64,000 bases of DNA from Allomuricauda sp. (GCA_002699205.1 PABT01000040.1:139774-203773), one strand, 5' to 3'; positions 31,797-55,503 are shown, counted from the stretch's first letter. A program made the numbers and translations. Notes: generated by a model not told the origin, from the letters alone.

Positions 31797-32059
31797 TTAT
31801 AGCCGTTTTTATATTGGAACAGGGCTATGGACTGGCACTGGTGAATCTCTGTAATCGTATTTAACAGAATCATTGGTATTTGATAATTTATTGTGATAAA
31901 ATAATTGTATTATTGAACTCTACTAAATTTTATAAAAACACTACTGATAAGATAGTTGTTCTTTTATCGAAACAATGATATTGGTTAAAAGCATTGATTC
32001 ATTTTAAAGAATGGATTCGTTCATTGGTCTGGGATAAGAAATGGAAACCTGAAATAGTT

Positions 32060-36402: not shown

Positions 36403-36650
36403 CACAAATAGAATCAAACCTAAACCCATTCACCAGGGAAAGATGTAAACCTTGTTTCCTTGTCCATGGGGATAGACTAAGCTTAAGGTGGAACCCCTTA
36501 ATTATGATGAACCCTGACCTAGGGTCATTTGCAAATGTTAAGGAGAGCCGCTTATCTCTTGATTTTTCGGTTTGCCATATCATTGGTTTGATCAGTGGGT
36601 TCAAGGCGCGTCGTATCGGCCTTTTGGACATAAATTTTAAATAATTGAAA

Positions 36651-38733: not shown

Positions 38734-40218
38734 ATGATAAAACAAATTTTTATATCCATACCTATTTTGTTGTGCACCATAGTTGGTCTGGGACAGAAAT
38801 CACCGAATGTCCCTCCTGACCTCGTGGCACCCGATTGGGAATCGATCGCAGATCATTACAAGGTGCCAGATTGGTTGCAGGATGCCAAATATGGGGTTTG
38901 GTTCCATTGGGGCATTCCATCGGCGACGGACGAAAATAGACCGAACGATGGATCATGGTATGGAAGAAATATGTATGGGGGAGCTAAAAAACAGGCCAAG
39001 GTATTGTCTGCTTGGCATACCGAGCACTATGGCCCTCCAGAAGAATTCGGTTATGAAAAATTAATCCCTCTGTTCAAGGGTGAAAATTGGGATCCAGATG
39101 CCTTGACTGCATTTGTAAAGGAAAATGGTGCCCGTTTTATTATGCCCGTTGCCACCCATCACGATAATTTTGATATGTACGATTCCTTCCATCCTTGGAA
39201 TTCCGTAGATATGGGACCAAAACGGGATGTACTCGGGGAATGGAAGTCCGCTGCTACAAAGTATGGGCTTAAGTTCGGGGTTTCTACCCATCTCTATTGG
39301 TCACCCGGATGGTGGAGACCGGCCCGTAAATACCAAACAGAGGGGACCTTGGAGTGGAAGCTGTTCAATATGGACTACGACCCGGAAAATTATGCCCACC
39401 AAGACAGCTGGAACAAACATTGGTATGCCCGCAGTTGGGAAATTGTTGAAAAGTATGACCCGGATATTTTCAATCACGATAGCGGCTCTTACCCAGAAAA
39501 GGAATTCCCTTTGTTCATTTCGGAATATCTCAATCGGGATTTGAAGGAAAACAACGGAGAACAAACGGTGGTTTTCTCTACCAAGAACCCTTCCCTGAAC
39601 CGTAAGGCCTTTACCTATAATTTGGAACGTGGTGGTGCAGATGAAATTAAAGAAGAGATTTGGTTGTGGGCAACGGATCTCTCCGGAAATTGGTTTTATC
39701 GAAAAAATGCGGTCAACAAAATGAGTATCCCCGTAATGGTGTCAAATGCTGTGGATGCGATAAGTAAGAATGGTATTGTGATGCTCAATATAGCGCTTCG
39801 TGGAGACGGTACAATTCCTGAAAAACAAATTGAATACTTGACCGCTTTTGGAGACTTCCTAAAAATCAATGGGGAAGGAATTTACGGTTCCCGTCCTTGG
39901 AAAACCTTTGGGGAAGGAACTTTGCAAATTAAGGATGGCAGGCAAGGGGAGAACCACAATAAGTACTCCCAAGCAGATATCCGATTTACCACCAAAGATG
40001 GGGTATTATATGCTTTTGTACTTGCTCCGCCAACCGATGACATTGTTATAAATACGTTGGCCAAAAATGGATTGCTGGACCAAAAAATAACCCATATAGC
40101 ATTAATGGGCAGTGATGAAAAAATAAAATGGAAACGGAACAAAAAAAACTTGACCATCCAACTGCCCGAACAGTTGCCTGGCAAAATTGTCAATGGATTT
40201 AAGATAACTGTGAAATAA
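38734..40218 (+). CDS. GH29 alpha-L-fucosidase-family enzyme
   Basis: DAKYGVWFHWG, ATHHDNF, IFNHD, MLNI, DIRFTTK C-terminal domain. Confidence 0.88.
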   Translation: MIKQIFISIPILLCTIVGLGQKSPNVPPDLVAPDWESIADHYKVPDWLQDAKYGVWFHWGIPSATDENRPNDGSWYGRNMYGGAKKQAKVLSAWHTEHYGPPEEFGYEKLIPLFKGENWDPDALTAFVKENGARFIMPVATHHDNFDMYDSFHPWNSVDMGPKRDVLGEWKSAATKYGLKFGVSTHLYWSPGWWRPARKYQTEGTLEWKLFNMDYDPENYAHQDSWNKHWYARSWEIVEKYDPDIFNHDSGSYPEKEFPLFISEYLNRDLKENNGEQTVVFSTKNPSLNRKAFTYNLERGGADEIKEEIWLWATDLSGNWFYRKNAVNKMSIPVMVSNAVDAISKNGIVMLNIALRGDGTIPEKQIEYLTAFGDFLKINGEGIYGSRPWKTFGEGTLQIKDGRQGENHNKYSQADIRFTTKDGVLYAFVLAPPTDDIVINTLAKNGLLDQKITHIALMGSDEKIKWKRNKKNLTIQLPEQLPGKIVNGFKITVK

Positions 40219-40235
40219 AAACTACCTCCGACCAA

Positions 40236-41834
40236 ATGATATTGAAACCAAAAAAAAGTATAATCCTATTGTTTGTTGGGTTTTTGAGCCTTCTAGGAAG
40301 ATCTCAGACCCATTCGTCCTCGGATAATGCCCCGAACATTATCTATATTTTGGCGGATGACCTTGGAATTGGGGATTTGAGCATCTATAACGAAAATAGC
40401 AAGATCAAAACTCCAAATCTCGACCAAATGGGGGGCCAGGGAATGATGTTCACGGACGCCCATACCTCTTCGTCGGTCTGTACCCCTACGCGATATGGAA
40501 TTTTGACTGGCAGATATAATTGGAGAACACCTTTGAAACAATTTGTGACCTGGGGCAATTCCCCCATGCTGATCAAGGATGACCGTCTAACCGTTGCGGA
40601 TATGTTGAAACAACATGGTTACAAAACAGCGGTCGTTGGGAAATGGCATCTAGGTCTTAACTGGAGCATGAAGGAAGGGGGGAAGGAATATGAGAACTAT
40701 ACGGGTATTGAAGATCGTTTTGATCCAAGTCTGATCAATTATGAAAAACCGCTGAAAAAAGGAGCGTTGGATCTGGGGTTTGATTACTCTTACTTAATAT
40801 CCGCATCCCTTAACATGCCTCCCTATGTTTACATTGAAAATGACCAGGTGGTAAGACAGCCCTATCAGGTTTCAGAAAGAAAAAAGGATGAATACCCTTA
40901 TGCAAATTGGATAAAAGGGGATATATCCCCTGATTTTAAACATGAGGAGGTCTTGCCGGTTTTTGTGGATAAAGCTGTTTCTTATATACAGGAGAATGGA
41001 AGAAAACAGAAACCTTTTTTCCTTTATATACCGCTTCCCGCACCCCATAATCCCATCTTGCCTATAGCACCGTGGAAAGGGAAAAGTAAAATCAATCCCT
41101 ATGCCGATTTTGTTTTGATGATAGATGATTTGGTAGGTAAAATATTTGAAGCAATCGAAAAAAGTGGCATAGCGGAAAATACTATGGTGATTTTTACCAG
41201 TGATAATGGCTGCGCTAAAAATGCCAACTTTTCGGTTTTAAAGGCGAAAGGACATAACCCAAGTTATATCTATAGGGGCAGCAAAGGTAGCTATTATGAA
41301 GGGGGGCACCGCGTGCCCTTTTTGGTAAAGTGGCCCGAAAAGATTAAACCTGGCAGCATATCCGATACGGCTGTGTGCACCACGGATTTCATGGCAACTT
41401 GTGCAGAAATTGTAGGCTATCGGCTTCAAGATGACGAGGGAGAGGATAGCTATAGCATGATGCCATTGTTTCAGCAAAGAGAAGGATACCAAAGAACTTC
41501 TATAGTCCATCACAGTCTGCGAGGTATTTTCGCCATCCGTAAGGGGAATTGGAAATTGATCCTATCTCCGAATTCAGGTATTTTACCAAACGGGAAGCCT
41601 GAAAAATTACCTGAAAAGTTACCCGAATACATGTTATATAATCTAGAAGAGGATATTGGCGAAACAAAGAATGTTGCCGCGCAATACCCTGATAAAGTTC
41701 GGGAACTGAAAGAGTTGCTCATTCGGCAAATTCATGACGGTAGGAGCACTCCTGGAAAAAAACAAGCCAACGATTCGATAAGTTTTCCTTGGGTACAGGC
41801 CCAATTTGCCTTTCAAGGGGTATCGGATAAATGA
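40236..41834 (+). CDS. Cys-type S1 sulfatase (S1_15-like)
   Basis: LADDLG, VCTPTRYGILTGR, GKWHLG, FTSDNG, EGGHRVP. Confidence 0.93.
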   Translation: MILKPKKSIILLFVGFLSLLGRSQTHSSSDNAPNIIYILADDLGIGDLSIYNENSKIKTPNLDQMGGQGMMFTDAHTSSSVCTPTRYGILTGRYNWRTPLKQFVTWGNSPMLIKDDRLTVADMLKQHGYKTAVVGKWHLGLNWSMKEGGKEYENYTGIEDRFDPSLINYEKPLKKGALDLGFDYSYLISASLNMPPYVYIENDQVVRQPYQVSERKKDEYPYANWIKGDISPDFKHEEVLPVFVDKAVSYIQENGRKQKPFFLYIPLPAPHNPILPIAPWKGKSKINPYADFVLMIDDLVGKIFEAIEKSGIAENTMVIFTSDNGCAKNANFSVLKAKGHNPSYIYRGSKGSYYEGGHRVPFLVKWPEKIKPGSISDTAVCTTDFMATCAEIVGYRLQDDEGEDSYSMMPLFQQREGYQRTSIVHHSLRGIFAIRKGNWKLILSPNSGILPNGKPEKLPEKLPEYMLYNLEEDIGETKNVAAQYPDKVRELKELLIRQIHDGRSTPGKKQANDSISFPWVQAQFAFQGVSDK

Positions 41835-41864
41835 TAGGTTAAAACAAACTAGGTTCAAAAATTA

Positions 41865-42929
41865 ATGCCCTATAAATATATGAAACCATACACATTATTG
41901 TTTTTTGCCGTAGTCACTTTGTTGTTTTATTCAGCAAAACCGGATAAGAGAATAAAGGAATCTTCTTTCGCGAAGTCACTGGTTCCTGGAGAATATATAC
42001 TTCCTGCGGAGGAAGGATGGTGGAATTGGGGCATGGCGCCCATTTATGACGAAAAGGGAAAGTTGCATGTGTTTATGTCCACAATCCCTAATGAGGGTAG
42101 TTGGATACGCGATAGTAAGATAGTCCATTTTATGGCGGATGGTCCAGAGGGACCCTATACATTTGTGGATACCACATTTGCAAGTCCCAAATTCACCTAT
42201 CACAACCCACAAGTATCCAAAGTGGGAGATACCTATGTAATGGTCTATTTGCGCAAGGATAGGACAACGCCAAGAATTCGGCAGGAAATCGGCATTGCTA
42301 CCACGGAATCCTTGGACAAACCCTGGGTGGAAAGTCCCCATAACCCCATCATTAAAGCTACGGGAAGTATGGGTGGGGCTAATATCATTCATGCATCAAA
42401 CCCTACCTTTTTAGTGGATGAGAATGGAAAATTCAGAATCTATTATAAATCCATCACCGATAAACATAAACCTAAGCTATACAGGGAGATCTCTATGGCC
42501 ATGAGCGATAAGATAGAAGGGCCTTATGAAAATTACAAGGAAAATCCCCTGATATCCTATGCGGATATGGGATTGGACATTGAAGATCCTTACGCATTTT
42601 ACTATAAGGGAATGTACTATATGATCGTAGAGGACCGAATGGATGTAAAAAGTGCCTTGGAAGGGAATCCAACACCGAAAAATGAAATTAAGTTGGGAGG
42701 AAACCGGCCAGGGTTGATCTATAAATCTAAAGATGGGATAGACTGGGGAAGACCGGAAATCGGGTACAATACCAATGCATATTACTTCAAACAAGAATTG
42801 GCAAGAACCGAGAGGCCTAATATTCTATGGAAGGACGGAAAGCCCGAATGTCTTTTCCTTGCGTGTCATGACAAAGACCCTACCGCTGGATTTTTCTTGA
42901 AAATTGAAGGATGGGAAGAACTGGAATAA
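41865..42929 (+). CDS. Five-bladed beta-propeller glycoside hydrolase (GH43/117-like clan)
   Basis: WGMAPIYD, HNPQV, ASNPT, IEDPY, ERPNI blade motifs; signal peptide. Confidence 0.7.
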   Translation: MPYKYMKPYTLLFFAVVTLLFYSAKPDKRIKESSFAKSLVPGEYILPAEEGWWNWGMAPIYDEKGKLHVFMSTIPNEGSWIRDSKIVHFMADGPEGPYTFVDTTFASPKFTYHNPQVSKVGDTYVMVYLRKDRTTPRIRQEIGIATTESLDKPWVESPHNPIIKATGSMGGANIIHASNPTFLVDENGKFRIYYKSITDKHKPKLYREISMAMSDKIEGPYENYKENPLISYADMGLDIEDPYAFYYKGMYYMIVEDRMDVKSALEGNPTPKNEIKLGGNRPGLIYKSKDGIDWGRPEIGYNTNAYYFKQELARTERPNILWKDGKPECLFLACHDKDPTAGFFLKIEGWEELE

Positions 42930-42996
42930 ATGGGATACATGAAGATGTCAATATAAAAAAATGGATTGTCAATATATCTACTCAAAATAACCACCT

Positions 42997-44889
42997 ATGA
43001 AGATTTTTATTTATTTATTTGTTTGTTTCACGATTTTCACCTCCTGCAAAGATTCAAAACAGGAGAAAGATGCCATTCTCGGGGATGGTGAGAGACCCAA
43101 TATACTTTGGATTAGAAGTGAGGACAATGGCACTTACATTGGTCCTTACGGGGACAAAATAGCTCAAACCCCCAATTTGGACAAATTAGCGGAACAAGGG
43201 GTGCGCTATTCCAATGCTTTTGCCAATGCACCGGTCTGTGCAGTGAACAGGAGCTCCATAATCCTTGGCGTTCCGGCCATTACGACGGGGACCCATCACA
43301 TGCGGAGCAGATATCGGGTTCCAGATTCACTTGTACCATACCCAACACTTTTAAAAGAAGCAGGGTACTACCTCACCAGCTATGGTAGGACAGATTATAA
43401 TAATTCCAGTTTCGATAGCGAAATTTATGATGAATATGGTAAGAAGGCACATTATAGAAACCGACCAGAAGGAAAACCGTTCTTTCACGTATTTAACATA
43501 TTGTCCACCCATGAAGGACAGATATTCGAACGACATTATCCTGAAAAATATCCAGAGGCCCAGACACCCGCAGAGGGTATCGTAGTACCTCCCTACCAAG
43601 TCAATACCCCTGAGAACATTAAAGACTGGCAGCGGGTTTATGACAGGGTTGCCGATATGGATAAGAAAGTAGGGGAATTCCTTGCCGACCTTGAGGAATC
43701 TGGTGAAGCCGAAAATACGATAGTAATCTATTCCCCGGACCATGCCGGAATCACACTTCGCTCCAAACGTTATATTTATGACAGTGGGACACGGGTGCCC
43801 CTGATTATTTATTTTCCGGAGAAATGGAAGCATCTGGCCCCTGGTAAACCGGGGTCTGTCATTGAACGTCTTGTTCAAATGACCGATATACCACCAACAT
43901 TGCTTTCGCTTGCCGGTGCAAAAGTGCCCGACTATATGACCGGACATATTTTTTTGGGTCCGTCAGTTGAACCAGCACCGGAAACCGTATTGCTTTTCTC
44001 CGATCGTTTTGTCTCTGCACCGGAAATGAGGAGAGGTCTTACCGATGGGCGTTGGAAATACATCCGAAACTATGAGCCAGACCGTCCAAGATTTCAAATG
44101 ATCACCTACCCCTTGTACCACCCAGGGCAACTTTCCCAGGTAAGGGAATATCAGGCGGGAAGAACGACTCCTGCCCAATCGGCATTTTTCCTTCCCCAAC
44201 CTCCCGAAGAACTTTATGACACCCAGGCAGATCCACATGAAATTGAAAATCTTGCAGGTCTTCCAGAATATGCGGACAAACTTGAGGACATGGGCCAGAA
44301 ACTGAACAAACAATTGTTGGCAGCCCGTGATGCAGGGTTTATTCCCGAGCCAATGATGGAAGCTATTGATAAGGATAGTTCCACAACGATCTATGATTTT
44401 GGCCAATCGACAAAACAATATCATCTCGATGAAATTTTTGCTGTTGCCAACAAGGCCCAGAAGAAGGATCCGAGCCTGATTCCGGATTTGGTTGAGAACG
44501 TGAAAGCGGATGATCCCATAATTCGGTACTGGTCTATCCTGGGACTTCGAGCATTGGGTAAGGAAGCCAAACCAGCCCTTAAAGAGATAGAAACGGCATT
44601 GGAAGATCCAGAAATAAGTGTTCGTATAACGGCTATGATCGCCTTGGGAAATATAGGCCAACGTAGTAGGGCTTTGGAATTACTTGTCAAAGAGGCAAAA
44701 GATGCAACCACGGATGTCCAGGCTAACTGGGCACTGCATGCTATAAAATATCTTGATGCCCCCGAGGCAATTGAGGGTTTTGATGAAAAAGAGCTTGTCA
44801 AAGGTTCTGATTCCCGAAGAACCTTCCTGGACCTTGCACATGGGGGTACCATGTATCAACCCGCTGTTTATGACGAGCTTCAATATTAA
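42997..44889 (+). CDS. S1 sulfatase lipoprotein with C-terminal HEAT repeats
   Basis: Lipobox FTSC; SEDNG; VCAVNRSS; PDHAG; HEAT-like DPIIRYWSILGL, DPEISVRITAMIAL. Confidence 0.85.
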   Translation: MKIFIYLFVCFTIFTSCKDSKQEKDAILGDGERPNILWIRSEDNGTYIGPYGDKIAQTPNLDKLAEQGVRYSNAFANAPVCAVNRSSIILGVPAITTGTHHMRSRYRVPDSLVPYPTLLKEAGYYLTSYGRTDYNNSSFDSEIYDEYGKKAHYRNRPEGKPFFHVFNILSTHEGQIFERHYPEKYPEAQTPAEGIVVPPYQVNTPENIKDWQRVYDRVADMDKKVGEFLADLEESGEAENTIVIYSPDHAGITLRSKRYIYDSGTRVPLIIYFPEKWKHLAPGKPGSVIERLVQMTDIPPTLLSLAGAKVPDYMTGHIFLGPSVEPAPETVLLFSDRFVSAPEMRRGLTDGRWKYIRNYEPDRPRFQMITYPLYHPGQLSQVREYQAGRTTPAQSAFFLPQPPEELYDTQADPHEIENLAGLPEYADKLEDMGQKLNKQLLAARDAGFIPEPMMEAIDKDSSTTIYDFGQSTKQYHLDEIFAVANKAQKKDPSLIPDLVENVKADDPIIRYWSILGLRALGKEAKPALKEIETALEDPEISVRITAMIALGNIGQRSRALELLVKEAKDATTDVQANWALHAIKYLDAPEAIEGFDEKELVKGSDSRRTFLDLAHGGTMYQPAVYDELQY

Positions 44890-44910
44890 TAATTAAGAAG
44901 AAATTATACT

Positions 44911-45930
44911 GTGAAAAAGTCAATCTTAGCATCAATCTTGTTTGTGTTTATTTTATATGCAAGCATCCAAATGGCTGATCAGGAACAGAGTTCTTCTGGT
45001 GAGAAAGATTATGCTTTGCTAGAGCTCGGTTTGATTGATTCCAGTATAAAAAGCGAGATAAAATCAATAAATAAAGCATCACATATTGATCGATCAGAGG
45101 GAGGTGAATACGATTTGGGGGATTATCCGGATACCCTAACCGCATATTTGGGCGCAACCCCTACCCTTGATGGTTTCATCGGAGAAGGTGAATATGATGA
45201 TGCTGAAAAAATATTGGGTGTCTCAGGTTGGCACAGCGACACTCCCCCAGCTTCTGAAAACACCAAGGACCTCTCCGTTGTTGGTTGGGTAAAACACGAC
45301 GGCAATAGCTTGTATTTGGCATTCGATGTCACGGATGACGTTATTTATGGTTTTGATACGGAGCGTTGGTTGCCTTCAGGTAATCCCGATGCAAATAAAT
45401 TGAACTATGATAAAGGATGGCCATTTTGGGGAGATGGCATTGAGCTTATGATGAATTCGACCTATAAATGGGATGATGGTAGTAGATGTGTGGGAGATGG
45501 TAGAAGCTGGCAATTCTGTTGTAGTACCAATAAATCTGTTCTTGGTGGTTTGGGGGTTGGAGGACTGTCTTCAGGACTGCCACTTAATGAGGAAGTTTGG
45601 AATCGTTATGAGAGTTGGATAAGAAATGGAGATATGGAAGCCGCTGTCCGTTTAAAGGATAAGGAGGAGGGGCGAGGCTATGTTTTTGAGTGGCGGATTA
45701 ACCCAAATCCATGTATGATGATTGATGATACAACCTATGTGGATTTGTCCAAGGAAACTAAAGTAGGGTTCAATATTGAACTTCAGGATCTTGATGAGAA
45801 AGAAAAAGGCAAAGGTAATTTCTCCAATATGCATCACATTGATTATTGGGCCAAGGTTGCGTCTAACAGAAAAACCGATCTCAAATCATTCGGTACATTA
45901 ATAATAAAACCAGAAAAGAAAGAACATTGA
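44911..45930 (+). CDS. Stand-alone CBM9/DOMON-like sugar-binding protein
   Basis: GTG start; PTLDGFIGEGEY, LYLAFDVTDD, GDGIEL, GYVFEWRI, VGFNIELQD. Confidence 0.7.
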   Translation: MKKSILASILFVFILYASIQMADQEQSSSGEKDYALLELGLIDSSIKSEIKSINKASHIDRSEGGEYDLGDYPDTLTAYLGATPTLDGFIGEGEYDDAEKILGVSGWHSDTPPASENTKDLSVVGWVKHDGNSLYLAFDVTDDVIYGFDTERWLPSGNPDANKLNYDKGWPFWGDGIELMMNSTYKWDDGSRCVGDGRSWQFCCSTNKSVLGGLGVGGLSSGLPLNEEVWNRYESWIRNGDMEAAVRLKDKEEGRGYVFEWRINPNPCMMIDDTTYVDLSKETKVGFNIELQDLDEKEKGKGNFSNMHHIDYWAKVASNRKTDLKSFGTLIIKPEKKEH

Positions 45931-46000
45931 ATTTAGCGAAGCCCAAAATAGGGTGGAGAATATGATAATAAAAAACCATACCAACAGAGTCATATAAAAA

Positions 46001-48259
46001 ATGAAAACACCTTTAAAATTTATCAAAAACACCCAGGTCATTGCTCTGGGCATGTTGATTTTATTTACCATTTCAGCATGCCATACAGATCGATCTACAG
46101 AGTTGTATGTTTCTGTTGAGGGAAGTGAAAACGCGGACGGCAGTCTGGAAGATCCGTTTGCCAGTATACACCAAGCGGTGGCTGCCGTCCGTGAGATGCG
46201 CAAAAACGGTATCACCGAGCCGGTCACCATTTACTTAAGGGAGGGGCGACACCAAATTACGGAAACCTTGGTCCTGGGCATGGAGGATGGGGCGGATGGT
46301 CCGGTGGAAGCAGTGCCCTTTGAGGAGTACGGTGCTGGGGAACTGGCCCCTGCCCATCTGACCTTCGCCGCCTACGCGGATGAAAAACCGGTATTGAGCG
46401 CGGGAGTTCCCGTGGACGGATGGACATTGATGGATTCCGAGGCCACGGACCTGCCCAAAACCTCGGAAGGAAAGGTCTGGGTGGCCGATATTCCGGAAGG
46501 GCTCAATAAATTTTATACACTATACAATCAGGAAGGGCGCTTGAAGCGTGCCAGGGCAGAGGGCTTTGTCCCCACAAAGCCCGGGGACAAAAAAACGGTG
46601 TACTTTCCTAAAGGAAAAATCAAGAACTGGGACAACCTCGCCGATGTGGAGCTGAACATCCGACCTGGCAGGGCCTGGATGATCAACATGTTGCCATTGG
46701 GGTCGGTGGATGAAGAAAACGGTGTGGCCACCACCAGCGTTTCCGCAACTTATAAAATTGGCAAATTGGCCGATTGGGTGCACACCAAGGACGGCAACTC
46801 CGCATGGATCGAAAATACTTTGGAAGCCTTGGATGAGCCCGGGGAATGGGTCATCGATTCCAAAAAGAGGAAAATTTACCTGTGGCCCAAGAATCCTGCG
46901 GCCGATGGATCCCCTGAAGGCATCCTTGCGCCTGCCATTGTCGAGTTGGTCCGTGTGGAAGGGAATATAGATTATGAAGGTTCCGTTGATCGGCCGGTCA
47001 GGGGAATCTCTTTCTCGGGAATAACCTTTTCACATGCGGATAGAAGACCATGGGTCAATGATGACGATCAATTGGGATGGGGCATGCAGCACGATTGGGA
47101 TATGTTCGACAGGCCTACGGCCATGCTACGGTTCAGAGGGGCCGAAAACTGTGTGGTGAGCAACTGTACTTTTACTAATTCTGGGGGGACCGGGGTCCGT
47201 TTTGACCTGTACGCACAGCGCAACAAGGTAGAAAACTCCGAGTTTGCCCATTTGGGCGAGGCCGGGATTCTCTTGGCCGGCTATGGACCGGGCACCAAGG
47301 ACGTGAACCATCACAATGAGGTCATAAACAATCACATCCACCATTTCAGTGAGATCACCTGGCATTCCCCAGGGGTATGGGCCTGGCAGAGCGGGCACAA
47401 TCGCATCGCCAACAATTACATCCACCACAGTGGATACTCCGCCGTACTCATCACCAATCGGATAAGTCCTGACAGAAGTTTAAATGGTGAAGGAGGAAGA
47501 ACGGTAAGAAGACATGAGATAGACACCACTGTTATGAAACCGTCCAATGAACACTATGCCGATTGGAAAATGAGGGAAAAGTACAATCACTCGCGTCACA
47601 ATCTTTTGGAATACAATGAAATAACCCATTCGGTGCAATTGCTTTCCGATGGTAACTGTATTTATGTTTCAGGTGCGGGGACAGGGAATATTGTGAGGTA
47701 CAATTACCTACACGATAATTTGGAGCATTCCATGCCAGCTCCCATCCGTTGTGATGACGATCAACATGAGACCTTGATCTATGGAAATATCATTTATAAC
47801 AATTACGCTTTTTCGGCAGGTATTGCATCAAAAGGGGTCAATGATATTGTTAACAACGTTATTGCAGCACCACGGGTAGCTCCTCGTTGGGGATATATCA
47901 GTTTTGAATGGGTTCCCGTAACGGGTTCCAAGGTATTTAAAAATATTATCATATCTCATCCTGATGGAGGGAATGCGTATGCGGAAAGAGCGCGAAGGGG
48001 ACAAACCACTGGCCTTCCTGATCTCATACAAACAGAAATGGACTCCAATTTATATTATCACCCGACCGATCCAAATTGGATGGAAGCACATTTTACCAGA
48101 ATGCGGGCTGCCGGTAAGGAAGAAGCCAGTCTATTTGCCGATCCTATGTTCAAAGATCCGGCAAACGGGGATTTTGGGTTTAAAGAGGGAAGTCCAGCCC
48201 TAAAATTGGGAATAGAACCCTTGAATGTTTCTAAAATGGGCATTCAATCTGAAAACTAA
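46001..48259 (+). CDS. Right-handed beta-helix glycoside hydrolase, GH141-like lipoprotein
   Basis: Lipobox ISAC; TIYLREG, RLKRAR, LDEPGEW, repeated Asn-ladder turns (NNHIHH, NNYIHH, YNYLHD), SDGNCIY and IRCDD. Confidence 0.72.
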   Translation: MKTPLKFIKNTQVIALGMLILFTISACHTDRSTELYVSVEGSENADGSLEDPFASIHQAVAAVREMRKNGITEPVTIYLREGRHQITETLVLGMEDGADGPVEAVPFEEYGAGELAPAHLTFAAYADEKPVLSAGVPVDGWTLMDSEATDLPKTSEGKVWVADIPEGLNKFYTLYNQEGRLKRARAEGFVPTKPGDKKTVYFPKGKIKNWDNLADVELNIRPGRAWMINMLPLGSVDEENGVATTSVSATYKIGKLADWVHTKDGNSAWIENTLEALDEPGEWVIDSKKRKIYLWPKNPAADGSPEGILAPAIVELVRVEGNIDYEGSVDRPVRGISFSGITFSHADRRPWVNDDDQLGWGMQHDWDMFDRPTAMLRFRGAENCVVSNCTFTNSGGTGVRFDLYAQRNKVENSEFAHLGEAGILLAGYGPGTKDVNHHNEVINNHIHHFSEITWHSPGVWAWQSGHNRIANNYIHHSGYSAVLITNRISPDRSLNGEGGRTVRRHEIDTTVMKPSNEHYADWKMREKYNHSRHNLLEYNEITHSVQLLSDGNCIYVSGAGTGNIVRYNYLHDNLEHSMPAPIRCDDDQHETLIYGNIIYNNYAFSAGIASKGVNDIVNNVIAAPRVAPRWGYISFEWVPVTGSKVFKNIIISHPDGGNAYAERARRGQTTGLPDLIQTEMDSNLYYHPTDPNWMEAHFTRMRAAGKEEASLFADPMFKDPANGDFGFKEGSPALKLGIEPLNVSKMGIQSEN

Positions 48260-48264
48260 ATGCC

Positions 48265-49242
48265 ATGAAGAAGACGGTTCTATTATTAACTATAATCGGG
48301 ATGTTTTTATCACAAGATAATTGCAAGGCCCAAAATATTGATTTTGATAAATATCCCCATGTTATTCTCTCTAATAAAGACGTGAGTATGAAGGTGTATC
48401 TTCCGGATCCGGAAAAGGGATTTTATCGTGCAACCAGGTACGATTGGACAACTGCAATAGGAAGTCTTCAATATAAAGGACATGAATATTTCAAGTTTGA
48501 AAGTGAAACCTATGACCCAACTGCCACTCATAGAATGGTAGGTCCTGCAAGTACGTTCAAAAAGCCTGGATTAGGATACGATGAAGCAAAAGTTGGAGAT
48601 GAATTTATCAGGATCGGAGTCGGTTTTATAAAAAAAATAGAGGAGCCGGTTTATGATTACCATACGCACTACAAGCTTTCTAGGCCGGGGGAATGGTCAA
48701 CCGAGCAGGGTAAGGATTGGATTTCGTTCAAGCACATTATCAATAGTGATTTTGGCTATGGCTATGTTTATGAGAAAACCATTCGTCTGAAAGATGATGG
48801 ATTTACCATGGAGAGTAAATTGCAAAACACAGGGGAAAAGCTTATTGAAACCGATCAGTATAACCATAACTTTTTTGAGATCGATGGTAAAAGATGTAAT
48901 CCTTCCATACAAATCAGCTATCCATTTCCAATCACCACCGACAGTGATTTGGACGGTAAGGTAGTGTTGAAGGATAATACCATTCACTTTACTAGGGAAT
49001 TGGAACCCGGTCAAGTTTTTATGAGTCTAAAGGGCTTTGGCAAAAAATCGCAAGACAATCAATTTACAATTGAAGACACGGACTCGGGTGCCGGGGTTAC
49101 CGTGCGGGTCGATCAGCCCCTTACTAAAATGGAATTCTATTCAAACGGCAAGATGATATGTCCTGAGCATAATATGCGGATATATGTAAAGCCAGGAGAG
49201 GAACAAATGTGGACTTCCAGTTATTCTTTTTTTGTTAAATAG
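48265..49242 (+). CDS. Exported protein of unknown function, galactose-mutarotase-like fold
   Basis: Signal peptide; beta-rich; YLPDPEKGFYRATRYDW, YNHNFF, ICPE near the C-terminus as in aldose-1-epimerase relatives. Confidence 0.55.
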   Translation: MKKTVLLLTIIGMFLSQDNCKAQNIDFDKYPHVILSNKDVSMKVYLPDPEKGFYRATRYDWTTAIGSLQYKGHEYFKFESETYDPTATHRMVGPASTFKKPGLGYDEAKVGDEFIRIGVGFIKKIEEPVYDYHTHYKLSRPGEWSTEQGKDWISFKHIINSDFGYGYVYEKTIRLKDDGFTMESKLQNTGEKLIETDQYNHNFFEIDGKRCNPSIQISYPFPITTDSDLDGKVVLKDNTIHFTRELEPGQVFMSLKGFGKKSQDNQFTIEDTDSGAGVTVRVDQPLTKMEFYSNGKMICPEHNMRIYVKPGEEQMWTSSYSFFVK

Positions 49243-49256
49243 GTAAATCATTAAAA

Positions 49257-50798
49257 ATGAACATAAAAACATTACTTTATTCAATCTTTCAAATAGGCCT
49301 TATCTTATTGGTTGCGGTATTTATTTTCGGATTTGAGGATAAAAAACCTGAACCGCAAAGGCCGAATGTAATTGTGATTATGCCCGATGATGCAGGGTAT
49401 GGTGATTACGCAAGTCTTGGTAATCCCATTATACGTACCCCCTCGGTAGATGCATTCAAAAAAGAGAGCTTACTTTTTACACAATTTCATGTTAGTCCAA
49501 AGTGTTCCCCGACCCGAGCAGCCTTGTTGGGTGGTCGTCATGAGTTCAAAAGTGGTGTAACCCACACTGTATTTGAACGTGAGCGCTTGAGTCTGCAAAC
49601 GGTTACGATTGCGGATATGCTCAAAGGAGCGGGCTATGCTACGGGTATTTTTGGAAAATGGCACCTTGGGGACGAAAAGGCCTATCGCCCCGAGAATCGA
49701 GGGTTTGATGAAGTCTATTCCCATGGTGGCGGTGGCATAGGACAAACCTTTCCTGGATCTTGTGGAGATGCCCCTGGTAACAGTAATATAGATCCTGTTC
49801 TTTGGCACAACGGAAAATGGGTGAAGACCACGGGTTATAGCACCGACTTATTTTTTGATCAAGCGATCAAGTGGATGGACACCAAACGTAAGGAGAAGAA
49901 ACCTTTCTTTGCTTACATTCCGCTCAATGCAGCTCACGGTCCCTATGTAGTACCGGAAAAATACTATAAACAATACCTTGGAAAACCCGGTGTGGACGAG
50001 CAAACGGCGAAGTTTTTTGGGATGATTGAAAATATCGATACAAACTTTGGCAAAATGCTCGGGAAACTTGAAGAGATGGGTATCGATGATAACACACTCG
50101 TCATTTTTCTCGGTTCTGACAATGGAGGTACTAAAGGAGTGAAAATATTCAATGCCGGTATGAAAGGTGGCAAAGGGTCTCCTTATCAGGGTGGTACCAG
50201 GGTGCCGTGTTTTGTTCGTTGGCCCGCTGGCGGTATTCAGGGAGGTGTAGAGACGGATGCTTTAACCGCTCACCTAGATATTTTCCCAACCCTTGCTGAA
50301 TTGGCAGGAGTCAAACTTTCTGGGAAAATACAGAGCCAGATTGATGGAATCAATTTGGTACCCCTATTTAAAAATCCTAACGGACAATGGCCAGATCGTA
50401 CACTTGTACATCACTTTGGTAATTGGGCCCAGGGCGATGCGGCCAAATCAAAATATCGAAGATCGGCAATTCAAAACTCCCGTTTCTCACTTGTTAACAA
50501 TACTGAGCTTTATGATATTAAAGCAGATCCGGGAGAAACCAAAAATATTATAGACCACCATCCCCTAGTGGTCAAGAAACTACGTGCCTTATATGATCAA
50601 TGGTGGGAAGATGTGCAACCACTTCTTGTGAATGAAAATTTGGTCGGCCCCAAAGTAAACCCCATGAAGGAAACATATTGGGAACAATTTGGAGGTGGCC
50701 CCGATGAGCAGATGTTAAGACGGATGGACCCGGCCAATGCGGTTAAAATGAGTAGGGAAATTGCGGCACGTAACGAGAGCAACTGGAAAAAAAGATAA
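49257..50798 (+). CDS. Cys-type S1 sulfatase (S1_17-like)
   Basis: MPDDAG, KCSPTRAALL, GKWHLGD, GSDNG. Confidence 0.93.
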   Translation: MNIKTLLYSIFQIGLILLVAVFIFGFEDKKPEPQRPNVIVIMPDDAGYGDYASLGNPIIRTPSVDAFKKESLLFTQFHVSPKCSPTRAALLGGRHEFKSGVTHTVFERERLSLQTVTIADMLKGAGYATGIFGKWHLGDEKAYRPENRGFDEVYSHGGGGIGQTFPGSCGDAPGNSNIDPVLWHNGKWVKTTGYSTDLFFDQAIKWMDTKRKEKKPFFAYIPLNAAHGPYVVPEKYYKQYLGKPGVDEQTAKFFGMIENIDTNFGKMLGKLEEMGIDDNTLVIFLGSDNGGTKGVKIFNAGMKGGKGSPYQGGTRVPCFVRWPAGGIQGGVETDALTAHLDIFPTLAELAGVKLSGKIQSQIDGINLVPLFKNPNGQWPDRTLVHHFGNWAQGDAAKSKYRRSAIQNSRFSLVNNTELYDIKADPGETKNIIDHHPLVVKKLRALYDQWWEDVQPLLVNENLVGPKVNPMKETYWEQFGGGPDEQMLRRMDPANAVKMSREIAARNESNWKKR

Positions 50799-50871
50799 CA
50801 CAAATAGGAAGCAGCTAAACATTGGTGTTTCATCGGTTATCCTATTCAATAAAGAGATGTAAACATAAAAA

Positions 50872-52362
50872 ATGGACAAAAAACTAAAAATATTGGCACT
50901 ATCGTTACTTCTGGGAATCATCAGTGGATTTTCCCAAAGTTCATCCATGGCTGGCAGTAGGCCCAACATCATTTTGGTTTTGACCGATGATCAAGGGATG
51001 GGGGATTTGTCATGTATGGGAAATGAAATTTTGAGAACTCCCCATATTGATGAGTTTTATGAAAAATCCACTCGATTTACCGATTTTCATGTAAGTCCTA
51101 CCTGTGCGCCTACCCGTGCGGCCTTGATGAGCGGACGGGTTCCTTTTAAAAATGGTGTAACCCATACTATTTTACAAAGGGAAAGGATGGCCTTGGATGT
51201 TTTTACGCTACCGCAAGCTTTGAAAACCTCGGGGTATACAACCGGACTTTTTGGAAAATGGCATTTAGGGGACGAACTGGCCTACTTGCCCGTAAATCGT
51301 GGTTTTGATGAGGTGCTTATGCACGGTGCGGGCGGCATTGGGCAGTTGAAATATGGTGATTTTCCTCCTAATGCGGGAGAAAACAGTTACTTCGACAATG
51401 TTTTATTGCACAATGATACGATTGTTCAGACGAAAGGGTTTTGTACAGATTTGTTCTTTAATGCATCACTGGCATGGATCAAGAAACAACATCAGGCCAA
51501 TAAACCCTATTTTGCCTATGTATCCCTAAATGCACCTCACGGCCCCTTTAACAATAATGCCCCGGAAGAATATCAAAAGCGTTTTTTGGATGCTGGTTAT
51601 GACAAAAAGACGGCCGTACGTTATGGGATGATTGAGAACATTGATGATAATTTTGGGGAGATGATGGCAAAGCTTGAAGCTTGGGGAGCCCTTGACAATA
51701 CCATAGTCATATTTATGACGGACAATGGTATGTCCATGCCTCCCATTACCCATAATGGAGAAAAAGAATACCCCTTTAATGCGGGATTGAAAGGAAGAAA
51801 AAACACTCCTCATGAGGGTGGAACCCATGTTCCTTTTTTTGTGCAATGGAAAGGTGTCCTAGGTCAAGGGGTAGATATAGATGGCCTAGCGTCCCATATA
51901 GACTTGTACCAAACCTTCTGTGAACTGGCGGGAGTGAATCTCCCCAAAAGCATACAGAAAATGGATGGCCGTTCCTTTGTGCCCCTATTGGAAAACCCCA
52001 ATGCTCCATGGGAAGACCGAAACTTATTTTTTCATTGTGGCCGTTGGGCAGCAGGTGAAAGGGAACAGGCAAAATATATCAAGTGTGCCGTACGTACAGA
52101 ACAATGGAGGTTTGTGAACAATTCCCAATTGTACGATATATCGAAAGATCCATTTGAGGAACAAGATGTCTCCGCAAACAACCCAAAGGTTATTGAACAA
52201 TTTAGGGAGGTATATGATCGCTGGTGGGCATCGACCCTGCCCTTTATGGTGAATGAGGATCTACCTTCGGTAGAACCGGAAGACCAACCCCTTGTCAAGC
52301 GTTATTATGAACAATTGGAGAAATACGGTATTCCAGATTGGGCGCCAGAATCAATAAAATAA
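50872..52362 (+). CDS. Cys-type S1 sulfatase (S1_17-like)
   Basis: [36 protein letters not shown]. Confidence 0.93.
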   Translation: MDKKLKILALSLLLGIISGFSQSSSMAGSRPNIILVLTDDQGMGDLSCMGNEILRTPHIDEFYEKSTRFTDFHVSPTCAPTRAALMSGRVPFKNGVTHTILQRERMALDVFTLPQALKTSGYTTGLFGKWHLGDELAYLPVNRGFDEVLMHGAGGIGQLKYGDFPPNAGENSYFDNVLLHNDTIVQTKGFCTDLFFNASLAWIKKQHQANKPYFAYVSLNAPHGPFNNNAPEEYQKRFLDAGYDKKTAVRYGMIENIDDNFGEMMAKLEAWGALDNTIVIFMTDNGMSMPPITHNGEKEYPFNAGLKGRKNTPHEGGTHVPFFVQWKGVLGQGVDIDGLASHIDLYQTFCELAGVNLPKSIQKMDGRSFVPLLENPNAPWEDRNLFFHCGRWAAGEREQAKYIKCAVRTEQWRFVNNSQLYDISKDPFEEQDVSANNPKVIEQFREVYDRWWASTLPFMVNEDLPSVEPEDQPLVKRYYEQLEKYGIPDWAPESIK

Positions 52363-52368
52363 ACAAAG

Positions 52369-53643
52369 ATGTTAATCTCAGGTACTTTTAAGAGTTGTGC
52401 GAAGTATATTTTAAGTGGATTATTGACTGCTACTTGTTTTTCACTGATAGCACAGAACAATCAAAAATCATTGGTTGATATATTGGAGCCTAAGGTGTTC
52501 CGTGCACCCAAGATTTTTTGGGAACCAACCAAAGACCAAGGGAAGGTTAAAGCCTTGTTTTATGAAACCCTCGATTATAAAGGAAAACCAACCAGGGCTT
52601 TTGCCTATCTGGGGATTCCCGACGGGGATACTCCTGTCCCCGCAATGGTACTGGTGCATGGCGGTGGAGGCAAGGCATTTTACGAATGGGTGAAAATATG
52701 GAACGATAGAGGTTATGCGGCAATTTCAATGAGCTTGGAAGGGCACCGGCCAGATGAAGAGGGCAATGGCAAACATCGTCATGAATTTAGTGGCCCTACT
52801 CGGGTTGGACGTTTCGAAGATGTCGAAAAACCAATAAAGGAGCAATGGATGTACCATGCTGTTTCAGACATTTTATTGGCACATTCATTATTGGCTTCAT
52901 TACCCGAAGTTGATGCCGATCGCATAGGAATTACCGGCATCTCATGGGGTGGAATTTTGAGCAGTCTCGTATCGGGGGTGGACAGTAGATTAAAATGTGC
53001 GATTCCTGTTTATGGTGCGGGATTCTTGAATGAATCAAAAGGTCATTTCGGAGACCATGGGGATGCCACCGCCGAATATATTGAAAAGAAGAAATTTTGG
53101 GACCCAGCGAACCAGTTTGCGAATGGTAATGTACCGACACTATGGGTAAATGGAGATTCCGACGGACATTTTTCCCTTAATATTACCTCTCGTTCTTTTC
53201 AGGTAACTGCAGACCATGCCTATATGAGTATCCATCCAGGTATGCGACATGGACATCCACCAGGGTGGAACCCTGAGGAAGTACCGGAAATTTATGCGTT
53301 TGCAGATTATGAGTTGAAAAAATCAGGATATCCCTTGGCTCGGATTGTAAAACAACCATCCGGTAAAAAGCTTAGATTAAAGTATAGGTCGGAATTACCA
53401 ATAATAGAGGCCAAAGTATATTACCTCAATGAAGAATTGACCTATAGAAAAGAATCTGAATCAGATAAGCACGCAAGACCAAGTACATGGCAAAGTATTA
53501 CGGCAGATATCGATGAATCAAAACAAATGGTCAAGGCAAAACTGCCCAAAAGTGCCCGAACATATTATGTGAATCTAAAAGATTCAAGAGGGTTGATAAT
53601 TTCATCCATTTTAGTGCAATTAAAAGATAATCAAAGAAACTAA
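52369..53643 (+). CDS. Alpha/beta-hydrolase carbohydrate esterase (deacetylase candidate)
   Basis: VHGGGG oxyanion loop, GISWGG nucleophile elbow, D in GDSDGHF, H in MRHGH; signal peptide. Confidence 0.8.
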   Translation: MLISGTFKSCAKYILSGLLTATCFSLIAQNNQKSLVDILEPKVFRAPKIFWEPTKDQGKVKALFYETLDYKGKPTRAFAYLGIPDGDTPVPAMVLVHGGGGKAFYEWVKIWNDRGYAAISMSLEGHRPDEEGNGKHRHEFSGPTRVGRFEDVEKPIKEQWMYHAVSDILLAHSLLASLPEVDADRIGITGISWGGILSSLVSGVDSRLKCAIPVYGAGFLNESKGHFGDHGDATAEYIEKKKFWDPANQFANGNVPTLWVNGDSDGHFSLNITSRSFQVTADHAYMSIHPGMRHGHPPGWNPEEVPEIYAFADYELKKSGYPLARIVKQPSGKKLRLKYRSELPIIEAKVYYLNEELTYRKESESDKHARPSTWQSITADIDESKQMVKAKLPKSARTYYVNLKDSRGLIISSILVQLKDNQRN

Positions 53644-53646
53644 AGT

Positions 53647-55503
53647 ATGGGAACAAGAAGAATCGGAACAAGAATAGCATCTGTAATAACATTGGTATTG
53701 ATGTTTTCATCAGGTTTGGCAAGGGCTCAGAACAAAAGTGAAGCCAAACTGTGCAATGATGAATCTATGGACTGGTTTCGGGAAGCAAAATTTGGGATGT
53801 TCATCCATTTTGGGGCGGAAACCCCAGAGCGATTAGAGCACAGTGATTTGACCCGAACGGAAAAATATGAAATTGCGGTAAAAGAATTTAACCCTGTTGA
53901 TTTTGATGCAAAAGAATGGGTTAAAATAGCCAAAGATGCGGGAATGAAGTACATCGTATTTACTACCAAACATCATGATGGGTTCTGTAAATGGGATTCA
54001 AAATTAACGGATTGGGATGTAATGGATCAAACCTCCTTCAAACGGGATATTGTGGGAGAATTGGCCGAAGCCTGCAAAGAAGCGGGAATTGAACTTGGAT
54101 TCTACTATTCCATAGCAGATTGGCATCACCCCGAATACGACCCGGTTTACAGCAATCGCAACGGATTCCATTTTAACCCCAATCCCGATGCGGATATTAC
54201 CAAGTATATGGATTATATGTATGGCCAAATAAGGGAATTGTGCGAAAATTATCAACCCCGTCTATTTTGGTTCGATGGCTCTGGTGGTTTTAGAAATCCG
54301 AACAAGAAGCGCATATTGGGACAACAAGAGATGATGGATTTGTTGAGTTCTTATGGGGCGATAAGCAATAGTCGCTATGGGGATGACGATTCCTTAAAAT
54401 ATGTCAATTACCTATCAATGGGTGATAATATGTCTCCATCAGGAAATATAGGAGTGCCTTTTGAGACAGCCCAAACCATGAACAACTCTTGGCATTTTGA
54501 AGCAAGTGACGAGGATTGGAAATCGGCAGATACCTTGTTGGAATATCTGGTCAAAATTGTTGGGAACGGAGGAAATTATTTGTTGAATGTAGGTCCGGAT
54601 CGCAATGGGGTAATTCCCGAAGCGTCCCAAAACAGGCTTAAAATAATGGGAGATTGGCTTAAAACAAATGGAGAAGCCATATACGGGACCAAGGCGGGCC
54701 CTTATCCCTACGAATTAAATTGGGGGTCAATGACCCAACGAAAGAAGGGAGATAGAACAATACTTTATTTGAATGTGGTAGACTGGCCACAGGATGGAAC
54801 CTTTAAATTATATGGCCTTATGAACAAGGTCTTAAAGGCAAGCCTTTTAGCTGACCGAACCGAGCTTTCTACATCAAATGAATTCAATGCTTCGGCAGGG
54901 TTGAATGTTGTATCGATACAAGTTCCTAAAACGGCACCTGACCCCTATGTTTCGGTTATTTCTTTGGAAATAGAAGGGGAGCCGGTGATTGATGGACATT
55001 TTTTGCAGCAAAATGACGACACGGTCTTATTGGATGCATTCTATTCCACGATTCATGATGAAAAACTCGTGCCGAACAAGCCACTACGACCAGTAGACCA
55101 AAAAATATTCACTGTAATGCAAAAAGGGGAGGGAATTATGCCCACAAGGGGGATGACCGTAGGTTTGAATAAAACGGGACAGGCCTTGACATGGGATTTT
55201 AGAATGGTTAACCCTGGAACTTATGAAGTCGCAGTAGTTTGTAATGCAGGAGAAAACCAAAAATGGGAAGCGGATGGAAAAATGAAAGTGACCGTGGCAG
55301 GTCAATCGGTTGAAAACAAACTTAGGGAAGATGAAAGAAAAGAGAACCGATGGATGGCACACAATATGAAAAGTGTGGTCTCCAAAATAGGAAAAATAAC
55401 GATTAACACGGCTGGGATGAAAACCCTGACCTTGGAAGTTACATCTGATTTTAATGATTTAAAACCCAATGTTCGATACGTTCAACTTGTACCGATCAAA
55501 TAA
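53647..55503 (+). CDS. GH29 alpha-L-fucosidase-family enzyme with C-terminal CBM-like domain
   Basis: [31 protein letters not shown]. Confidence 0.9.

Follow-up and report, generated by a model that had tools for sequence, protein, structure and literature searches.

Two GH29 enzymes of an Allomuricauda fucoidan locus with a predicted altered −1 subsite that may accept substituted fucose

Seven GH29 genes in a fucoidan utilisation locus

Degraders carry many GH29 paralogues, the individual roles of which are mostly uncharacterised. The window analysed here, a stretch of 64,000 nucleotides (nt; one strand) from Allomuricauda sp. (PABT01000040.1:139774-203773), contains five of them. Genes were called from open reading frames (ORFs) and Pfam matches, and residues were numbered on the translated ORFs. 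From position 31994 to the end of the window, the + strand carries a Bacteroidota-type polysaccharide utilisation locus, which is of the type used for fucoidan or sulfated fucan. A profile search of the 4.47-Mb assembly found seven GH29 genes in the genome, every one of them in this locus; beside these, the locus harbours eight sulfatases, two GH141-like enzymes and one esterase. Two of the GH29 enzymes, named below by the first nucleotide of their genes (38734 and 53647), depart from the canonical fucose pocket and retain the nucleophile and the His residues of the family, along with candidate acid/base residues. The GH29 genes of the window are:

36645..38420, + strand: GH29 gene 1, canonical S-E-W at residues 79-81 (PF01120)
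38734..40218, + strand: GH29 gene 2 (P0002), 494 amino acids, with a signal peptide, a GH29 catalytic barrel and a Fucosidase_C domain (PF01120, 1e-69; PF16757)
53647..55503, + strand: GH29 gene 3 (P0003), 618 amino acids, with a signal peptide, a catalytic barrel and two C-terminal beta-sandwich regions (PF01120, 3e-85)
57396-59252, + strand: GH29 gene 4, S-E-W at residues 210-212, canonical W-F-D
59254-60696, + strand: GH29 gene 5, S-E-W at residues 89-91, canonical W-F-D

In GH29A enzymes (TfFuc1 numbering), Glu60 and Trp61 bind O3 and O2, His49 and His108 bind O4, His109 binds O2, and the C6 methyl is enclosed by Trp206, Trp292 and Phe47; no GH29A structure in that comparison lacks Glu60, Trp61 or Trp206 (PMC11796335). 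The canonical (S/A)-E-W following HWG/HFG was found in five of the seven GH29 enzymes of the locus, the exceptions being the 38734 and 53647 enzymes, which both lack the Glu-Trp pair (Glu66/Trp67 of TmFuc). For the window, this agrees with the initial annotation, which had noted SEW in three of its GH29s. Both exceptions belong to CAZy family GH29 by PF01120 (235.9 bits for the 38734 enzyme and 287.2 bits for the 53647 enzyme, at a cut-off of 25.2), and both retain the O4- and O2-binding His residues (His34, His128 and His129 of TmFuc), as His58, His142 and His143 in the 38734 enzyme and as His54, His109 and His110 in the 53647 enzyme. The HHD motif and the nucleophile Asp, which had likewise been assigned to both, are present, the former as HHDNF in the 38734 and HHDGF in the 53647 enzyme, the latter as Asp249 (by family alignments) and as Asp210 in W-F-D, respectively.

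The 38734 enzyme and its clade

The features of the 38734 enzyme that bear on its pocket and catalytic residues are:

38905..38913, + strand: H58-W-G; His58 corresponds to the O4-binding His34 of TmFuc and His68 of BpGH29 and is present in 121/121 clade members (HMMER alignment; PMC9774334)
38926..38958, + strand: loop T65-W75, with a five-residue insertion (Glu67, Arg69, Pro70, Asp72, Gly73) and then Ser74-Trp75 replacing Glu-Trp
39157..39171, + strand: H142-H143-D-N145-F; the His pair binds O4/O3 and O2, and Asn145, in place of the Gly of HHDGF, is clade-invariant
39469..39480, + strand: F246-N247-H248-D249; Asp249 is the probable nucleophile, and Asn247 stands for the C6-pocket Trp (Trp206 of TfFuc1)
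39616..39627, + strand: Y295-N296-L-E298; Glu298 is the probable acid/base, and Asn296 stands where 54/59 outgroup sequences have Asp
39661..39678, + strand: W310-L-W312-A313-T-D315; Ala313 lies at the position of Asp327 of BpGH29 (an O6 binder), and Trp312 and Asp315 are clade-specific

The GSWY motif and the Glu-to-Ser exchange reported earlier for this enzyme were recovered, with Ser74 lying under the Glu of G-S-E-W-Y of BpGH29 in the HMMER alignment. A further change had gone unnoticed: the Trp two residues N-terminal of the nucleophile, which forms part of the C6-methyl pocket in W-F-D, is Asn247 in 121/121 clade members. A reading of Asn247 as a dead nucleophile, which came from one pairwise alignment with a two-residue misregister, was rejected, as Asp249 shows no variation and lines up with the FD that holds the family nucleophile; Asp249 is among only twelve invariant columns across 92 sequences and is present in 121/121 clade members. 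Glu298 is taken as the probable acid/base because it lies 15 residues before the Asp327 position, a spacing like that between Glu403 and Cys418 of ClAgl29B (PMC9774334), and it is conserved in at least 90% of sequences. The AlphaFold2 (AF2) model of the enzyme is of high confidence, with a predicted local distance difference test (pLDDT) score of 94.5.

These exchanges are properties of a clade. In the family alignment, Ser74 was found in 120/121, Asn247 in 121/121 and Asp249 in 121/121 members, and the near-invariant segments comprise His58-Trp-Gly, Asp72-Gly-Ser74, His142-His143-Asp-Asn145-Phe and Phe246-Asn247-(Asn/His)-Asp249; at position 75, Trp and His are about equally frequent. A scan for specificity positions, in which 33 clade members were compared with 59 outgroup sequences, yielded 46 positions that are fixed in the clade and rare outside it, concentrated at the C-terminal ends of the modelled barrel strands. 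Arg69, Asp72 and Ser74, found after strand 1, are fixed in the clade and missing from the outgroup, which is devoid of the five-residue insertion. Other clade-specific sites are Thr185, Tyr188, Trp189 and Pro191, which come after a strand with the invariant His186 at its end; Asn247 (in 0/59 outgroup sequences); Tyr295 and Asn296 before Glu298; and Trp312, Ala313 and Asp315.

The clade is tight and isolated: identity within it does not fall below about 58-60%, and with the next relatives it reaches at most 43%. A library clustered at 50% identity contained two full-length clade representatives (737 and 644 bits; 62-66% identity) plus fragments, the next protein being at 318 bits and 40%. The best 120 relatives (64-95% identical) come from Flavobacteriia, Cytophagia, Rhodopirellula and other Planctomycetota, Lentimonas, Haloferula, Akkermansiaceae, Phycisphaerae and others. 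When one genome per species was scanned, an encoded relative was found in at least 191 species (the best 80 of the 191 being 58-80% identical) of Bacteroidota, Planctomycetota, Verrucomicrobiota, Kiritimatiellota, Proteobacteria and other phyla, with further hosts including Pontiella, Pseudoalteromonas, Pseudocolwellia, Litorimonas and an Anaerolineales bin. Within the source's own family, just 3/201 sampled genomes harbour the 38734 type. This pattern, patchy within the family and broad across phyla, fits a spread along with fucoidan loci.

The Glu position also varies more widely. Among 138 full-length representatives of the wider branch to which the 38734 enzyme is related, 50 have Glu there, 44 Asp, 22 Gly and 4 Ser. 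Ser74, the insertion bearing Arg69, Asn247 and the W-A-T-D strand are, taken together, unique to the clade. As a separate observation, P0246-P0395 form a large, apparently uncharacterised GH29 branch with HHD-Asn, in which Asp, Gly or other residues replace the O3-binding Glu; its sequences typically read G-D-W-Y-A-R, and L-L-Y-x-D around the nucleophile.

The 53647 enzyme and its clade

The corresponding features of the 53647 enzyme are:

53806..53856, + strand: H54-F-G and a shortened loop, A57-R70, in place of the Glu-Trp loop
53971..53985, + strand: H109-H110-D-G-F; the His pair is invariant
54268..54276, + strand: W208-F-D210; C6-pocket Trp and nucleophile, canonical in 121/121 and aligned to Trp204/Asp206 of BF3242 (PMC11796335)
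54367..54468, + strand: R243, D260 and E273; R243 corresponds to the Arg that GH29A enzymes have between their catalytic residues; the acid/base candidates are the invariant D260 and E273

Here the change is confined to the loop. Compared with 6GN6 and 9EU1, the loop is three to four residues shorter and has no Trp, and it is modelled with a pLDDT of ~93 (92.9 for the whole AF2 model). The initial annotation had described a short loop without Glu-Trp; the shortening and the loss of Trp stood, but an acidic residue is frequent near the canonical Glu position, and for Glu61 and Glu64 the pairwise alignments disagree on which sits under the canonical Glu. In the alignment D260 is one residue off the acid/base Glu239 of aLfuk1, E273 being an equally invariant candidate; in GH29A, acid/base residues are known to align poorly by sequence (PMC10154630).

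The best 120 relatives (50-95% identical) come from marine Flavobacteriia, Verrucomicrobiota, Planctomycetota and Kiritimatiellota, and often share genomes, even contigs, with the 38734 type. In this clade the segment between H-F-G and a conserved E-F-N-P is the least conserved region of the protein: ~78/121 members have a loop of variable sequence, ~43/121 have neither the loop nor the first helix, and Trp was found there in 0/121. The rest of the pocket is canonical and invariant (Phe52, His54, His109, His110, Tyr153, Trp208, Asp210, Arg243 and Trp282). In 43/121, these being more distant members, the HHD Asp has given way to Val, Ala or Asn. Among such distant relatives, P0197-P0245 were observed to miss the loop and first helix after strand 1, with the HHD Asp replaced by Val, Ala or Asn in many of them.

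Relation to characterised GH29 enzymes

The best solved match of the 38734 enzyme is BpGH29 (Bacple_01702; 7LJJ/7LK7/7LNP), an exo-alpha-L-galactosidase from the porphyran locus of Bacteroides plebeius (E value 4e-80; template modelling (TM) score 0.86), and BpGH29 entries are also the best solved neighbours of its AF2 model (TM 0.83-0.86). In BpGH29, Glu80 acts on O3, His68 on O4 and Asp327 on O6 (PMC9774334). The two enzymes share a two-domain layout, and His68, the His pair, the nucleophile Asp264 and Trp335 of BpGH29 all have 38734 equivalents, as does, probably, its acid/base Glu. However, their identity is 35%, and the residues characteristic of a BpGH29-type L-galactosidase are absent, Glu80 being replaced by Ser74 and Asp327 by Ala313. 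In addition, W-F before the nucleophile is N-H/N, Trp265 is Ser/Ala with a three-residue deletion, a five-residue insertion brings Arg69, and the locus is of the fucoidan rather than the porphyran type.

With TmFuc (1HL8/1ODU), TfFuc1, BF3242, aLfuk1, BT2970, AlfC and FucA1, both enzymes have the family, the fold, the predicted retaining mechanism and, with the acid/base as a candidate, the His/Asp/Glu core in common. Unlike TmFuc and the GH29A set, the 53647 enzyme has no Glu-Trp loop, and the 38734 enzyme has neither the Glu nor the equivalent of Trp206. The 53647 enzyme is closest to aLfuk1 (6GN6, its nearest solved relative, 1.5e-72) and BF3242 (9EU1), of whose 12 pocket residues it retains 10.

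GH29 is known to hold enzymes that are not fucosidases, namely BpGH29, two alpha-L-galactosidases of Cellulophaga and the alpha-L-glucosidases ClAgl29A/B (PMC9774334; bioRxiv 10.64898/2026.05.19.726164). ClAgl29A/B of Cecembia lonarensis (7XSF/7XSG/7XSH) provide the precedent that changes at the Glu66 and His34 positions retarget the −1 subsite to another L-sugar, and the spacing from acid/base to O6 position is equal in the 38734 enzyme. Yet ClAgl29 carries Asp for Glu and Asp for His34, whereas the 38734 enzyme carries Ser74 and His58 and is a distant match (E 1e-23; TM about 0.7); the 53647 enzyme likewise retains His54 and has no aligned Asp. When soluble GH29s from marine and gut loci were screened, 17 of 31 had fucosidase activity, two more released alpha-L-galactose and no activity was reported for 12 (bioRxiv 10.64898/2026.05.19.726164), and five atypical GH29s of the marine Verrucomicrobium Coraliomargarita akajimensis showed rates of only nmol/min/mg on the para-nitrophenyl (pNP) fucoside, galactoside and glucoside (PMC9774334).

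In ecological role and locus type, the two enzymes resemble Alf1_Wf and the FucWf series of Wenyingzhuangia fucanilytica and the GH29 sets of Lentimonas sp. CC4 and Planctomycetota, which are described as freeing unsulfated terminal fucose from sulfated oligosaccharides after exo-sulfatases. Homologues of the 38734 type are present in Wenyingzhuangia, Lentimonas and Rhodopirellula. Searches of the PDB and the literature found no characterised member of either atypical clade, the published Wenyingzhuangia, Lentimonas and Planctomycetota GH29s not having been placed relative to the clades.

Genomic context and gene fusions

The context of the 38734 type was sampled in 79 loci that carry such a gene, by tblastn of the locus proteins of the window. 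All loci examined are of the fucoidan type (GH29, GH141-like enzymes and sulfatases), and no agar or porphyran enzymes were found in them. Relatives of each window sulfatase were co-located in ~23-25 of the 79 loci; the corresponding numbers are 23 loci for GH141-like genes, 20 for first-GH29 orthologues, and 10 each for orthologues of the GH43-like protein and for esterases. In five flavobacterial loci, an S1_15-like sulfatase orthologue lies directly 3′ of the gene-2 orthologue, and the order esterase, gene 3, gene 2 is likewise present in locus L020. In many loci of Verrucomicrobiota and Planctomycetota, GH141-like genes were observed directly 5′ of the 38734-type gene. A fixed partner gene that would name the substituent was sought in the 79 loci and rejected: the neighbour varies among S1_15-like and other sulfatases, GH141-like enzymes, other GH29s and GH43-like proteins.

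Natural fusions of the 38734 type are frequent and were found with GHL15 (PF14885) at the C- or N-terminus, with a BD-FAE esterase, with an AXE1 esterase plus GH141-like beta-helix, with a GH141-like domain plus GHL15, with a sulfatase and with an alginate-lyase-like domain. Four of these fusions, namely the stop-to-stop frames L016:2-4588 (AXE1 esterase and GH141-like helix), L015:5889-10532 (GH141-like helix and GHL15), L044:5777-8701 (S1 sulfatase) and L079:7974-10616 (alginate-lyase-like), each come from a single metagenome bin in which assembly read-through is possible. The 53647 type is also fused to GHL15. These fusions place the 38734-type enzyme beside enzymes that make or trim substituted chain ends and are compatible with action on substituted fucose.

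GHL15, an uncharacterised TIM-barrel domain for which the literature search found no functional study, was observed fused at either end to both atypical clades in several phyla (P0058, P0117 and P0214; L004:3478-6189, L029:6780-9461 and the L015 frame); it is probably another enzyme of the fucoidan pathway.

Interpretation of the altered −1 subsite

Both deviations are lineage traits and not the product of chance. The best explanation of their conserved residues is that both proteins are catalytically competent, periplasmic, retaining exo-alpha-L-glycosidases of the GH29 A-type, and that the −1 subsite is altered in both conserved lineages is well supported by the alignments. The alteration proposed in the initial annotation has thus come out stronger than first stated, with the changes fixed across clades and the nucleophile and His residues retained. 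What these changes do to the pocket, and which sugar each enzyme accepts, we infer from the residues at the site.

The reading that we favour, if tentatively and with a probability that we put a little short of even, is that a substituent on O3/O2 of the terminal fucose is tolerated, or required, by both enzymes. On this proposal, the pocket would be rebuilt on the side that normally grips fucose O2 and O3. In the 38734 enzyme, Ser replaces the O3-binding Glu, an inserted loop brings in an invariant Arg and Glu, Asn stands for the C6-pocket Trp, and the strand of the O6-binding Asp of BpGH29 reads W-A-T-D; in the 53647 enzyme, the whole Glu-Trp loop is shortened (and deleted in relatives), with the other pocket residues canonical. 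Both could then remove terminal fucose that still carries O3 and/or O2 sulfate or, less likely, acetyl, which the five canonical paralogues would be unable to bind, and the locus would thereby pass points at which exo-sulfatases or the esterase do not act first. In favour of this reading, fucoidan-type GH141 enzymes cut as endo-fucanases, and the non-reducing end that they create carries a 2,3-di-sulfated fucose (PMC12786026); a review describes exo-type fucoidanases of Vibrio sp. N-5 that release mainly sulfated fucose, with the gene unassigned (PMC11943901); and the atypical C. akajimensis GH29s cited above show hardly any activity on unsubstituted pNP-glycosides. As the 53647 clade keeps HHD-Gly, compensation by an Asn after HHD would be closed to it, and of the two types it makes the stronger argument for a pocket with a genuinely open O2/O3 side.

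Several points weigh against substituted fucose as the substrate. Among the 138 related sequences, Glu occurs with Gly after HHD in 45 of 50, and a residue other than Glu occurs with Asn there in ~74 of 85; this covariation, which in sequences of common descent is no formal test, suggests contact between the Glu position and the residue that follows HHD, and Asn145 may take over the O3 contact of the Glu. Seen in this way, the exchange of Glu for Ser is by itself no evidence for a new specificity. In addition, the invariant Glu67 and Asp72 of the inserted loop, together with Trp312, could rebuild an ordinary fucose pocket, and loops of the 53647 clade often hold an acidic residue near the canonical Glu position. 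No neighbour of the 38734-type gene is constant, so the context points to no single substituent, and the fusions are equally compatible with action after clean-up by esterase or sulfatase. Finally, the eight sulfatases and the esterase may strip the terminal fucose fully beforehand, in keeping with the published stepwise model in which sulfatases act before fucosidases (introduction of PMC12786026).

A stronger form of the substituted-fucose proposal, which we consider unlikely although deserving of mention, is that one or both clades are 'sulfo-fucosidases' that bind fucose-3-sulfate and/or fucose-2-sulfate and free the sulfated monosaccharide. The sulfate site would be formed by Arg69 and Ser74 in the 38734 enzyme, or by the space of the deleted loop in the 53647 enzyme. 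If the clades were sulfo-fucosidases, they would provide the missing genes of the exo-type fucoidanases that yield sulfated fucose and add a desulfation-independent route to the sulfatase-first model.

Of the rival explanations, the one that survives best, and that we regard as a serious contender of lower probability, is that both are ordinary exo-alpha-L-fucosidases acting on unsubstituted fucose, in which different residues build an equivalent pocket and the seven paralogues differ in linkage and aglycone (the +1 subsite and neighbouring sulfates), not in the −1 sugar. The covariation of Glu or non-Glu with Gly or Asn after HHD suggests a second valid mode of O3 binding common to most of the branch, the acidic and aromatic gains Glu67, Asp72 and Trp312 are invariant, and the O4/O2 His residues are retained, as are the platform residue and the pocket wall of Trp320/Trp282; moreover, the accepted order puts sulfatases before fucosidases, and 17 of the 31 soluble GH29s in the screen cited above had fucosidase activity. 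However, Asn247 in place of the C6-pocket Trp is unique to the 38734 clade, the 53647 clade has HHD-Gly without the Asn route and in many members lacks the loop altogether, and conservation this strict between phyla (at least 58-60% identity) speaks for a distinct specificity under selection.

Action of the 38734 type not on fucose but on a different galacto-series L-sugar, for example alpha-L-galactose, possibly 6-O-sulfated, we judge improbable. Its nearest solved relative is an exo-alpha-L-galactosidase, the exchange of Trp for Asn247 would make the C6 pocket more polar and roomier, the adjoining 3′ sulfatase is like the S1_15 6-O-sulfatases, and the family holds L-galactosidases and L-glucosidases (PMC9774334). 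Against this stand Ala313 at the position of the O6-fixing Asp327, the low identity to BpGH29 and the fucoidan type of all loci examined, free of agar and porphyran enzymes. The galactose in fucoidan is, besides, the D-form. A 3,6-anhydro-L-galactose substrate, which would suit an enzyme that has lost both the O3 binder and the C6-pocket Trp, was rejected on the same fucoidan-type loci, none of which held agar enzymes.

The idea that either protein, or both, is a decayed paralogue or binds sugar with no catalysis can practically be dismissed: residues conserved in all solved GH29A structures are lost, but invariance across hundreds of sequences from several phyla extends to the nucleophile Asp, the candidate acid/base residues, the two His and the Arg/Lys found between the catalytic residues, the reading frames are intact and the models are of high confidence.

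The outcome matters because the two lineages are sequence-defined and widespread, and their pockets depart from that of every solved fucosidase with the catalytic machinery apparently intact. If substituted fucose is accepted, part of the multiplicity of paralogues would be explained, the accepted order of desulfation and glycoside cleavage would change, and tools for cutting defined sulfated fuco-oligosaccharides would become available; if the enzymes are ordinary, they would represent a second GH29 way of building the fucose pocket, with Asn after HHD instead of Glu. They are a well-defined target for enzymology and not a new system.

Other genes of the locus

The remaining features called in the window are:

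31994-36199, + strand: hybrid two-component sensor
40236, 42997, 49257, 50872 and 55469, + strand: five S1 sulfatases
40236..41834, + strand: the first of these, directly 3′ of GH29 gene 2, S1_15-like, with S1_15 6-O-sulfatases as top solved matches
41865-42929, + strand: weakly GH43-like protein, 354 amino acids
44911-45930 and 48265-49242, + strand: ORFs without an assigned family
46001-48259, + strand: GH141-like beta-helix protein
52369..53643, + strand: alpha/beta-hydrolase esterase (AXE1/S9-like), which stops 4 nt short of GH29 gene 3
61504, + strand: SusC gene

Neither of the two ORFs without a family matched a Pfam family, one of them having a faint CBM9 match, and a PDB search found no solved relative of the ORF at 48265. 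The GH29 encoded at 36645-38420 is a close homologue, probably an orthologue, of the solved 9RZX (1028 bits, full length); 9RZY (725 bits) and 9S00 are also homologous to it. A literature search found no citing paper for the 9RZX group of entries, 9RZX itself being apparently unpublished. The candidates 9RZX, 9RZY and 9S0X had been considered as orthologues of the atypical enzymes and were rejected, 9RZX and 9RZY matching the canonical first GH29.

For the 41865-42929 protein, the GH43 match is below threshold and the PDB match is single and weak (5TA7); its orthologues, 59-74% identical across phyla, adjoin 38734-type genes in 10 of the 79 loci. The 46001-48259 protein resembles the GH141 type that was shown to be endo-fucanases, not fucosidases (PMC12786026). 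Read from its first ATG, the sulfatase ORF at 55469 overlaps the end of the 53647 gene by 35 nt, and its real start may be farther 3′. Past the end of the window (L080:1-17886), the locus continues with the SusC tail, SusD, three sulfatases, two GH29 genes (A-E-W) and a second GH141-like gene; the same stretch also carries a gene for pyruvate phosphate dikinase and, on the opposite strand, one for a formylglycine-generating enzyme.

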